Origin: a virus
Taxonomy: Duplodnaviria; Heunggongvirae; Uroviricota; Caudoviricetes
Reading direction: 5' to 3' (one strand)
DNA: 64,000 nucleotides
IMG/VR virus record: IMGVR_UViG_2565956614_000003
In this document: positions 10,526-12,197 of the stretch, one piece after another
Layout: each line of letters starts with the position of its first letter
Position numbering within the stretch: position 1 is the first letter of the stretch
The notes under the pieces: model-generated
The model's database searches: none
Seen by the model: the letters and a program-made list of their open reading frames with translations, nothing else
Told to the model about the DNA's origin: nothing
Position numbers and translations under genes: made by a program

Positions 10526-11641
10526 TTATTCAGCTGCCACCGGTTTTAACAAGCCAGCATCGAGCAGTTTACGCGTCAACCACTGCTGGCCTTTACCCGT
10601 TAATTGAGGCGTCAACCGTATCTGGTAGCCATCTTCATCATCCAGCACCACTTCTTTCACCGTGAAATACCCCGCGTTGATGTACTGCTGGAACGGCACA
10701 TTTTTACGTCCACCGGACGCTATCAGGATGCCGTTCTCCCGTAACCAGACAAACAGCGCGTTTTGCTTAAGTCCAACAACCTTTGCAAAATTCCCAATCA
10801 GGATCCCTTTAGCTACTGATACCCGGTCGGCAAAATCGACTTTAGGAGCGGCGGCCACCAGCTGCTGATTTAGCTGGTGGGCTTTCTGTTCCAGAAGCTG
10901 CTTTTGTTCAGCCAGTTCGGCAGCCAGGCGCAGAGCTTCTGGAAGCGTCTGGGGGATTGCAACCGGTTGCTGTTCTTTTTGCCGGAAGTAGCTGTCTTCC
11001 AGTTTTTCAAAGAATGCCCATGCCTGATCGGTTTCGAGCATTTTAGCGTGGCGGGCTGCGCCGCGTTCCGTCCAGAGGATGAGTGAGCGGGCTTTAGGAG
11101 AGATAGGATTTTGTGAGTTACTTAAAGTCACCCGCAAATTGTTCAAATCATCTCCAATAACTTTATAGAAATGCTTGCCTTCACAAAAACGTTCAGCATT
11201 ACGGGAAAAGTTCTTCTTGATGTTATCCGCATCTGTCCCATACCCCTTAGCAAGGATCTTAGTTGTCACTACACGCACTCCCTGCCACTCTAGAACGGGA
11301 ATTTCATCCGGCTGACTTTGAACAACCACCAGTTCTGATTCCTGAACTAAAGGTGTATTAATTTTTTCAGATTTAACGTTAGTAGCTTTCATTCTGTGTG
11401 CCTCCTTGCGTGTTTCGGCTGCGACGGTTGCGTAATTCAGATGCCCCTGTTCGAGCAGGTATTCACGGATATCAGACAGCAGGATACGGTGAACAGCGTT
11501 CTTGTCCTTTCTCCGGTAAAGTTGTTTGGTGATCATGAAGTAGTTGGCAATAACGCCTGGTATATCCCTGGTACTGATACAGGCAGTGTGCTGTTCAATT
11601 GCCTCGATCATCTCTTCACGGGTGACTAATGACGTTCTCAT
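10526..11641 (-). CDS. antirepressor paralogue (Ant-like; Bro-N-like central region, ANT/KilAC-type C-terminus), second copy
   Basis: 371 aa; N-terminal ~90 aa and C-terminal ~130 aa closely resemble ORF 59580..60623; ATGA overlap with upstream icd-like ORF. Confidence 0.8.
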   Translation of the reverse strand: MRTSLVTREEMIEAIEQHTACISTRDIPGVIANYFMITKQLYRRKDKNAVHRILLSDIREYLLEQGHLNYATVAAETRKEAHRMKATNVKSEKINTPLVQESELVVVQSQPDEIPVLEWQGVRVVTTKILAKGYGTDADNIKKNFSRNAERFCEGKHFYKVIGDDLNNLRVTLSNSQNPISPKARSLILWTERGAARHAKMLETDQAWAFFEKLEDSYFRQKEQQPVAIPQTLPEALRLAAELAEQKQLLEQKAHQLNQQLVAAAPKVDFADRVSVAKGILIGNFAKVVGLKQNALFVWLRENGILIASGGRKNVPFQQYINAGYFTVKEVVLDDEDGYQIRLTPQLTGKGQQWLTRKLLDAGLLKPVAAE

Positions 11642-11859
11642 AGTCCCTCCTGAGCAGAAGCGTTAACAGGGAGGCACCAGTAACTGAGAGAATTGCGTGA
11701 ATCAGTGGAAAAACGGGCAGAGAAAATACATGGGGCGTCAGGAAGCTGAGAGCGGGCCTCATCTTCTGTCGGTGCAATAACGAAGTGATAGTGACGTTTT
11801 TGGCAGGAGTAAAAGCGCCAGATAAATTCAGGATGAGTTGGGGTAGGGATAGTAGCCAT
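11638..11859 (-). CDS. Icd-like small protein (second copy)
   Basis: 73 aa from ATG 11859 with AAGGAGG Shine-Dalgarno; shares PEFIWRFYSC..HYHFVIA.TEDEARSQLPD.PCIF.ARFST.SRNSLSYW with ORF 60620..60841. Confidence 0.7.
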   Translation of the reverse strand: MATIPTPTHPEFIWRFYSCQKRHYHFVIAPTEDEARSQLPDAPCIFSARFSTDSRNSLSYWCLPVNASAQEGL

Positions 11860-11879
11860 ATTGGCAGCCTCCTTAGACG

Positions 11880-12170
11880 TTGGTATGTAACCACCGCAGA
11901 AGAGACCAATCTTGCTGGCGGTGGACTGTACGGAGTTGGCCTTACTGGCGTCCAAGGTAACCAGCCTACCCGAAGGTAGCCCCATACAGCCCACCATTGT
12001 AGAGGTGTGCGTGTACGCCGATACAAAAAAAGACGCGAGCGGCGTCTGTATCGCCTTAGACTTAAGCGGGAGGCCAATCCCGGCACCCGTTTTAATGAGG
12101 TGCCTGATAAGCATAAACCGAAAATGCCTCAAGGCGCAAGAGGTCAGGTTCAATGTAACATCGGCAGTTA
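11880..12170 (-). ncRNA. possible c4-like antisense RNA region of the second immI-like module
   Basis: About 300 bp with no ORF between operator and icd-like gene; short shared blocks (AACCAGC, CCCCAT, CCCACCAT) with the region upstream of the canonical icd. Confidence 0.3.
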
Positions 12171-12177
12171 AAAAACA

Positions 12178-12194
12178 CAATTTATTAGAGCAAA
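12178..12194. promoter_or_regulatory. C1 operator upstream of the second immI-like module
   Basis: CAATTTATTAGAGCAAA, 15/17; overlaps the last codons of pacB. Confidence 0.6.
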
Positions 12195-12197
12195 TAT

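Follow-up and report, generated by a model that had tools for sequence, protein, structure and literature searches.

The window analysed here, a stretch of 64,000 nucleotides (nt) from the virus record IMGVR_UViG_2565956614_000003 (Caudoviricetes), is P1-like phage-plasmid sequence and carries a complete immI-type operon at 10497-12194 on the minus strand, between c1 and pacB. The operon is convergent with c1, lies directly downstream of pacAB and is made up of a predicted operator for the C1 repressor, two promoter-like sites, an IsrK-type leader RNA, a C4 antisense RNA gene, the short reading frame icd2 and an antirepressor gene, ant (Table 1). As this module lies at the c1-pacB junction and the canonical copy (59580-61172) in the sim/kilA position, it is a second paralogous locus and not immI itself. 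Judging from its anatomy, we consider it probable that the module is a functional second immI-type immunity operon of the phage-plasmid, whose Ant most likely antagonises C1. The core of the original prediction, a second C1-operator-headed copy of immI with another antisense specificity that is absent from reference P1, is supported by Rfam, by the pairing of the antisense elements and by comparison with P1.

The operator foreseen at the head of the module, TTTGCTCTAATAAATTG, is a predicted site that matches the consensus ATTGCTCTAATAAATTT at 15 of 17 positions. Operator-like sites are well above chance expectation within the window (15 observed against 0.44 expected), and the operator core TGCTCTAATAAATT is retained in 44 of 50 unique related leaders. 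The -35 hexamer TTGTGT of the promoter-like site Pa overlaps the 3' end of this operator and is followed 17 nt on by TACATT, which is the geometry of Op51/P51a in P1; with the C1 operator lying over it, Pa would be repressed by C1 and off in the lysogen. The second site, Pb, is so placed that transcripts would begin at about 12103, where the isrK model has its 5' end. The second cassette of phage D6, described below, is preceded by TTGCGC-18-TATATT, the remaining upstream sequence there being unrelated.

About 300 bp without an open reading frame (ORF) had been described after the operator; the coordinates hold, but the stretch is not empty, as it encodes two Rfam RNAs, isrK and C4. The leader scores 60.8 bits as isrK against 20.5 bits as c4-a1b1, the family as which the equivalent canonical element scores, and the canonical C4 reaches 69.6 bits in Rfam, where the C4 of the module matches the full-length model. 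In the predicted fold of the latter, the hairpin loop UACCUUGGAC (b') and the single-stranded AAGGCCAA (a') are exposed, and compensatory changes occur in 12 of the 28 stem pairs across 8 homologues. Loop-only duplexes of a' and b' with the module's own a1, b1, a2 and b2 have energies of -8.6 to -11.3 kcal/mol, against -5.2 to -8.8 kcal/mol for the best pairing with the canonical targets. RNAduplex runs of whole C4 against whole leaders had returned uninformative long duplexes and were replaced by these loop-only duplexes and by counts of exact complementarity. The leaders of the module and of the canonical locus can be aligned in blocks only, in agreement with the short blocks noted earlier upstream of the two icd genes. 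An antisense RNA of different specificity, as had been proposed, thus appears to be encoded, with a full-length C4 whose a' and b' fit the module's own sites and not the canonical ones of P7 type.

The annotation of this RNA gene in public records deserves a remark. The NCBI pipeline places a 39-aa 'ash family protein' coding sequence right over the C4 gene (3279-3398 against C4 at 3315-3402 in locus L005), and the same call lies on C4, at the equivalent of 11914-12001 of the window, in locus L006 and in many RefSeq records; in locus L007 an 'ash family protein' of 342 aa covers both isrK and C4. These are probably ORF calls on an RNA gene, a systematic annotation artefact.

The 73-aa and 371-aa genes lie where they had been placed and overlap by an ATGA stop/start at 11638-11641 that is conserved among related loci, which suggests translational coupling of ant to icd2. 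Icd2 is 81% identical to the canonical Icd over 64 aa, matching the near-identity over about 60 residues claimed before, and its 73-aa ORF is retained in nearly all related loci. The ant gene is complete and joined to icd2 by the ATGA in 42 of the 48 loci that could be evaluated (88%), and truncated genes of 60-270 aa occur in a few. Its product has an ORF6N domain followed by an ANT/KilAC domain, the arrangement of the ORF6N-KilAC (Roi/Ant-type) phage regulators; the search for a homologue of solved structure found none. Both Ants of the window are full-length matches to phrog_63 and are 54% identical overall, with 64% in the N-terminal 83 aa, about 20% in the centre and 90% in the C-terminal 117 aa, so that the shared ends and differing centres described by the original prediction were recovered. 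Its names for the centres did not survive: Pfam gives ORF6N and no Bro-N match for the module Ant, and no Rha match even at E<=10 for the canonical one, and both labels were rejected on these results. The start of the nested ant2-like frame at Met84 has the same position as the annotated ant2 starts of P1 and P7, and the motif RKEAHRM is conserved in all four Ants compared. Among loci in the c1-pacB slot the Ant centre is 57-100% identical between variants, against at least 96% for the flanks in full-length variants; at least four ORF6N variants occur independently of the C4 allele, and a canonical-type centre stands in place of ORF6N in three loci (L039, L062 and L043).

Table 1. Coordinates of the features of the second immI-type module, of the canonical immI locus and of neighbouring genes in the window
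Feature	Position	Strand	Remarks
C1 operator TTTGCTCTAATAAATTG	12178-12194	-	predicted; follows the pacB stop codon directly, partly abutting it; 2 mismatches to consensus
Promoter-like Pa, TTGTGT-17-TACATT	12152-12180	-	positional homology to P1 P2c4/P51a
Promoter-like Pb, TTGCGC-18-TATGCT	12110-12139	-	aligns with P1 P1c4/P51b
IsrK-type leader RNA	12026-12103	-	Rfam isrK (RF01394), 60.8 bits, gathering score 50
a1 TTGGCCT	12071-12077	-	in IsrK-type leader
b1 GTCTAAGG	12054-12061	-	in IsrK-type leader
Intrinsic terminator	12031-12047	-	ends the IsrK-like element, after a1/b1
C4 antisense RNA gene	11914-12001	-	Rfam C4 (RF01695), 75.9 bits, gathering score 45, full-length model
b' loop CCUUGGAC	11950-11957	-	in C4
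a' single strand AGGCCAA	11936-11942	-	in C4
a2 TTGGTCT	11903-11909	-	downstream target site
b2 GTCTAAGG	11871-11878	-	overlaps icd2 Shine-Dalgarno AAGGAGG
icd2, 73-aa Icd-like protein	11638-11859	-	NCBIfam phage_ICD_like, E=2.6e-13
ant1-like gene, 371 aa	10526-11641	-	PHROG phrog_63 'anti-repressor Ant', full length, E=3e-134
Nested ant2-like frame from Met84	10526-11392	-	AAGGAGG-N7-ATG
ORF6N domain (PF10543), aa 116-201	11039-11296	-	Pfam E=8.7e-19
ANT/KilAC domain (PF03374), aa 259-360	10562-10867	-	Pfam E=5.9e-31
GC-rich hairpin, likely bidirectional terminator	10497-10518	-	between ant stop (10526) and c1 stop (10493)
Canonical immI	59580-61172	-	P7-type specificity
Canonical operator	61156-61172	-	
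Canonical c4-a1b1	61043-61095	-	
Canonical C4	60889-60974	-	
Canonical icd	60620-60841	-	
Canonical ant	59580-60623	-	
cre	7494-8525	-	
coi	9322-9531	+	
c1	9642-10493	+	
pacB	12198-13682	-	stop codon 12198-12200
pacA	13682-14875	-	
Canonical immI-kilA-repL region	57741-61172		
repL	57741-58586		

As had been claimed for the canonical locus, the module copies the order of parts of P1 and P7 immI (Op51-P51a/b, a1b1, c4, a2b2, icd, ant1/ant2), and is likewise headed by a C1 operator over the upstream promoter. The likeness extends to a C4 of the same Rfam family, a two-element antisense code in which b2 lies on the Shine-Dalgarno sequence of icd, the predicted icd-ant coupling, the nested ant2 start, the ANT C-terminal domain (90% identical) and alleles that differ by 2-nt swaps, as those of P1 and P7 do. 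In the P1 record a1/a2 are TTGACAG and b1/b2 are GTTAGTG, at positions homologous to those of the module, which validates the assignment of the latter; the P7 sites differ from them by 2-nt swaps (TTAGCAG, GATTGTG). The canonical leader of the window (60825-61175) is identical to P7, and not to P1, at all six a/b sites, and as the code of the module is unrelated, this genome carries a P7-type immI plus a second immI of different code. Besides the a/b code, which is entirely other, the module differs from P1 and P7 immI in lying at c1-pacB rather than sim-kilA, with no sim genes upstream, in the isrK rather than c4-a1b1 score of its leader and in the ORF6N centre of its Ant. A short stretch in the centre of the canonical Ant is unlike that of either P1 or P7 Ant, the canonical locus being a mosaic too.

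The most telling comparison is that between carriers of the module. Exact matches to the conserved 5' part of the leader were found at 63 loci of IMG/VR, and 65 leaders, from the window, related records of annotated collections and the IMG/VR loci, were complete enough to be compared. All 65 have kept the 3' end of pacB, the operator and the two promoter-like sites nearly unchanged. Five slot alleles are formed from the a elements TTGGCCT, TTGAGAC and TTGGAAC and the b elements GTCTAAGG, GCAAAAGG and GTCAAAGG: allele 1, of the window type (TTGGCCT/GTCTAAGG, 30 loci), allele 2 (TTGAGAC/GCAAAAGG, 15 loci), allele 3, of the RCS47 type (TTGAGAC/GTCAAAGG, 7 loci), and the combinations TTGGAAC/GCAAAAGG (7 loci) and TTGGAAC/GTCAAAGG (4 loci). 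Within 63 of the 65 loci a' is paired 7/7 with a1 and a2, and b' 8/8 with b1 and b2, whereas across alleles the differing element retains only 3-6 contiguous pairs, a shared a or b element still being fully paired. This covariation at three sites (a1/a'/a2 and b1/b'/b2) is strong comparative evidence for what would be a working antisense lock. Sliding identity over 43 unique modules has troughs at a1b1-C4-a2b2 (0.79-0.83) and at the Ant centre (0.50-0.65), against mostly 0.84-0.99 in the rest of the module. Covariation and the two troughs together are the pattern expected of a working antisense lock under diversifying selection, and they practically rule out a decaying duplicate.

An exact search for the allele-1 C4 core found none outside P1-like contexts (29 IMG/VR loci and one Escherichia species representative); all 29 belong to the 63-locus set, in which each locus whose upstream sequence is long enough to tell lies in the pacB slot. 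One slot locus, L043 (IMGVR_UViG_2778261639_000014), is a recombinant in which a1 (TTGAGAC) mismatches a' and a2 of the TTGGAAC type, and its Ant is a canonical-type protein of 347 aa.

Reference P1 (AF234172) has 24 bp and zero genes between the c1 and pacB stops, in line with the original prediction. In P7, SJ46 and other P1 isolates the query finds matches to its c1 and pacB portions alone, within a span of 1.4 kb, and these phages therefore lack the module. Among the matched phages it is carried by RCS47, vB_EcoM-673R5 and JL22, and RCS47 is 95.5% identical to the window over c1-module-pacB. Of 5426 complete E. coli genomes, 698 have a P1-type c1 and 259 at least 80% of leader plus icd2, mostly on plasmids, which puts the module in about 37% of P1-type elements; PLSDB holds 281 plasmids with at least 80% of it. 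The same module occupies the same slot in RCS47 (NC_042128, gp039), where the gene is annotated ant, and in pTZ20_1P, RCS47 having allele 3 (TTGAGAC/GTCAAAGG) where the window has allele 1. At the level of genes the insertion is already published, since the pacB-c1 interval was described by Venturini et al. 2019 (PMC6906374) as holding an insertion of ant together with two short hypothetical ORFs, as it does in RCS47. The reports on RCS47 and pTZ20_1P list an antirepressor gene and short hypothetical ORFs only, with no RNA genes, operator or specificity alleles. In the searchable literature we found no account of the RNA anatomy, operator or alleles of the slot, so that its structure at the RNA level and the series of five specificity alleles appear to be undescribed there; an earlier mention in the D6 paper (Gilcrease & Casjens 2018) or in classical papers of the Schuster laboratory is possible.

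That the module is an accessory insertion, as had been suggested, therefore stands as far as its absence from reference P1 and P7 goes, with the addition that it is common and already published. No target-site duplications or flanking repeats were found at the junction, and the 24-bp spacer of P1 has weak similarity only to the module ends, so that, judged by the junctions, the module may have been inserted or may equally have been lost from P1 and P7. The P1 spacer (L002 1571-1594) for the most part repeats the 3' end of pacB in inverted orientation (GGCATGGTTAATGA against TCATTAAGCCATGCC) and forms a hairpin; it has a short CCGGCAT in common with the terminator hairpin of module-bearing genomes, and nothing more.

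Cassettes with the same RNA families occur in other mobile elements. Phage D6 has a second cassette (orf83/orf82, MF356679) with isrK, C4, icd and an antirepressor in the order of the module and a leader nearly identical to that of slot allele 2; its a/b sites (L073 3464-3944) are identical to those of this allele (TTGAGAC/GCAAAAGG), and RNA-level cross-immunity of D6 with P1-like elements of allele 2 is conceivable. The D6 cassette differs from the module in lying between pmgF and ref, not at c1-pacB, and in encoding a different antirepressor of 313 aa; a search for a C1-operator match in it found none.

In Gifsy-1, IsrK activates translation of the downstream antirepressor-like AnrP via complementarity with the C4-homologous STnc1160 region, and AnrP expression raises antQ transcription (Hershko-Shalev et al. 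2016, PMC4825925). The isrK-orf45(STnc1160)-anrP locus resembles the module in its IsrK-type leader, leaky terminator, C4-family RNA and antirepressor-like gene, and in the complementarity of the short leader RNA to the C4 element. Unlike the module, it is without icd, Ant1 N-terminal region, ANT domain and C1 operator and sits after antQ in a lambdoid prophage, and the model published for it is IsrK activation in trans, not C4 repression. The Gifsy-1 locus is marked by an orf45 that overlaps the C4-like RNA, is coupled to a stand-alone AnrP of about 185 aa and lies downstream of antQ, whereas in the module the first ORF is icd, downstream of C4, the Ant is a multidomain protein of 371 aa and the upstream neighbour is pacB. 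The two are linked through the centre of Ant, as its ORF6N domain has 68-82% identity to stand-alone proteins of the ORF6N type, about 185 aa long (68-74% for those in the AnrP position behind isrK-C4). The stand-alone genes directly follow isrK and C4 in Salmonella and E. coli lambdoid prophages, and the E. coli cassettes lie just downstream of a Q-like antiterminator gene (antQ-isrK-C4). At locus L078 (2247-2336) the Rfam models isrK (RF01394), which stands outside the C4 clan, and c4-a1b1 (RF03163) match the same element upstream of C4 and appear to stand for a single RNA, which would make IsrK the decoy RNA, with a1/b1, of C4 cassettes.

Cassettes of isrK and C4 also lie beside primase genes on E. 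coli chromosomes (L007 3096-3284 and L077 2567-2757). These satellite-like cassettes, which may be related to the P4 CI RNA, probably belong to satellites; as in P4-type satellite immunity, they share the RNA families with the module and control a satellite early operon instead of icd-ant. Their C4 stems and a element (TTGGCCT, with a2 TTGGTCT in L007) match allele 1 almost identically and the b element differs, a pattern that points to recombination of phage-plasmid cassettes with those of satellites. As a whole the module therefore resembles a mosaic, in which a C1 operator with its promoter and a P1-type icd are combined with an IsrK/C4 leader that has been exchanged with cassettes of prophages and satellites, and with an Ant whose N-terminus, nested Ant2 start and ANT domain are of P1 type and whose centre is AnrP-like. 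It is a well-supported addition to the family of P1 immI and IsrK-C4 cassettes and not a new type of system, and through it P1 immI, Salmonella IsrK/AnrP and the Rfam c4-a1b1 motif are joined into one cassette family.

The mechanism we propose combines the anatomy, RNA family membership and covariation seen here with promoter activity, RNA processing, translational repression, coupling and an Ant target inferred from P1 immI and from IsrK of Gifsy-1. The mechanism of P1 immI is reportedly laid out in the work of Citron and Schuster from 1990 and of Heinrich and colleagues from 1994-95. Transcription of the module would start at two promoters, the upstream one overlapped by the C1 operator and the downstream, IsrK-type one probably constitutive, and the transcript would run through the decoy a1/b1, a leaky intrinsic terminator and the C4 RNA to a2/b2, icd2 and ant. 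C4 would be supplied by the constitutive promoter and processed out of its precursor; the C4 RNA of P1 is excised by RNase P. Once free, its a' and b' would pair with a2 and b2 and mask the icd2 ribosome-binding site and, with ant coupled to icd2 by the ATGA, no Ant1-like or Ant2-like protein would be made while the cognate C4 is present. C1 at the upstream promoter would form a second layer of control. The lock would open on entry of the genome into a cell without the cognate C4, and also when C1 fails, as a1/b1 transcripts would then rise and titrate C4 in the manner of IsrK. Icd2 and Ant would be made from the opened lock, and Ant would antagonise a repressor. This repressor is most likely C1, since the Ant1 N-terminus is shared, the nested Ant2 start is present and the C-terminus is 90% identical; the Ant1/Ant2-like proteins would then most likely inactivate C1, as in P1 the Ant1/Ant2 complex is the C1 antirepressor and c4 RNA blocks Ant synthesis (PMC8546580).

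Several points weigh against this reading. A generic promoter scan called neither Pa nor Pb (Pa fell below threshold), so both rest on positional homology with P51a and P51b, and in the -35 hexamer of each no more than 3 of the 6 positions match. When the unprocessed leader is folded in silico, a1 pairs with a' and b1 with b' in cis (z = -3.2), which makes the balance of decoy and target impossible to predict from sequence. The ORF6N centre of Ant is hypervariable, unrelated to the centre of P1 Ant and similar to ORF6N proteins in the AnrP position, and AnrP of Gifsy-1 affects the expression of Gifsy-1 genes, not C1 (PMC4825925). C1, on the other hand, is 95-99% conserved, so an effector directed at it would not obviously need to diversify.

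A near-invariant C1 and a hypervariable, AnrP-like Ant centre make a different or additional target of Ant a serious rival, though we hold it to be rather unlikely. The cassette would then be regulated as described, but Ant would act on the repressors of other resident prophages or satellites, and loss of C1 would trigger or sense these elements. A different repressor as the target, or cross-talk between co-resident phage-plasmids, had been raised in the original prediction, and the hypervariable, AnrP-like centre lends this idea some support. Such cross-talk would account for a centre that varies between alleles while the flanks do not, for its likeness to stand-alone ORF6N proteins that follow (antQ-)isrK-C4 as in Gifsy-1 isrK/anrP, and for a parallel with AnrP, whose expression raises antQ transcription (PMC4825925); it could operate at the RNA level too, given the exact allele-2 sites in D6 and the allele-1 a element in satellites. 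Against this, Ant shares its Ant1-specific N-terminus, nested Ant2 start and ANT domain with the C1-binding Ant of P1, a C1 operator heads the operon, and the canonical-type centre in three slot Ants suggests that either centre can serve the same function.

A superinfection or abortive response serving mainly the host or the resident element, in which an incoming relative or satellite titrates C4 by an a1/b1-like RNA of its own or inactivates C1 and the release of Icd2, as a block to cell division, and of Ant aborts the co-infected cell, appears improbable to us. Icd is annotated as a cell-division inhibitor in P1, satellites have decoy a1/b1 RNAs with matching a elements and a diversifying a/b code would suit an arms race, but the parts are arranged exactly as in a phage immunity operon and the module holds no defence-type gene, no defence-system database having been searched. 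The presence of Icd in P1 is, moreover, reportedly explained by a coupling role in ant expression (Heinrich and colleagues, 1994). Least credible of all is a decaying, non-functional duplicate of immI that is passively carried. The truncated ant genes of a few loci and the fact that reference P1 and P7 manage without the module would fit it, and against them stand the three-site covariation across five alleles, the conservation of operator, promoter-like sites and terminator, the intact icd and ant in 88% of evaluable loci and the compensatory changes in the C4 stems.

If the module is a functional second immI-type operon, its a/b code, orthogonal to that of the canonical P7-type immI and present in at least five alleles, would be a second independent determinant of immunity specificity. 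A resident prophage would have to supply both matching C4 RNAs to silence the antirepressors of a superinfecting relative. Provided that Ant inactivates C1, the immunity exerted by non-carriers, or by carriers of other alleles, would not hold against carriers of the module, which would explain the allele series. We put forward, tentatively and as a possibility, that canonical and second locks form a combinatorial immunity code in which diversifying, frequency-dependent selection on the second locus, with its five or more antisense alleles and an effector domain swapped as a cassette, decides plasmid invasion, displacement and co-residence, and which is wired through RNA to D6-like phages, lambdoid antQ-isrK-C4-ORF6N cassettes and P4-like satellites with a or b elements in common. 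In immI, an antisense code of 2 nt determines the classical heteroimmunity between P1 and P7; with a second lock in about a third of elements, immunity groups would be combinatorial and not binary. P1-like phage-plasmids are frequent in E. coli and often carry antimicrobial-resistance genes, and the module bears on their superinfection and co-existence, its a/b alleles offering a simple sequence-based typing scheme.

Two minor observations concern the arrangement of these elements. In locus L026 (IMGVR_UViG_2698536372_000019, 975-2710) leader and C4 occur twice, 1566 nt apart, either as a tandem duplication of the module or as an assembly artefact. In the window, a sok antitoxin RNA lies at 57258-57432 on the minus strand (Rfam, 97 bits), just past repL, and implies a module of hok/sok type.

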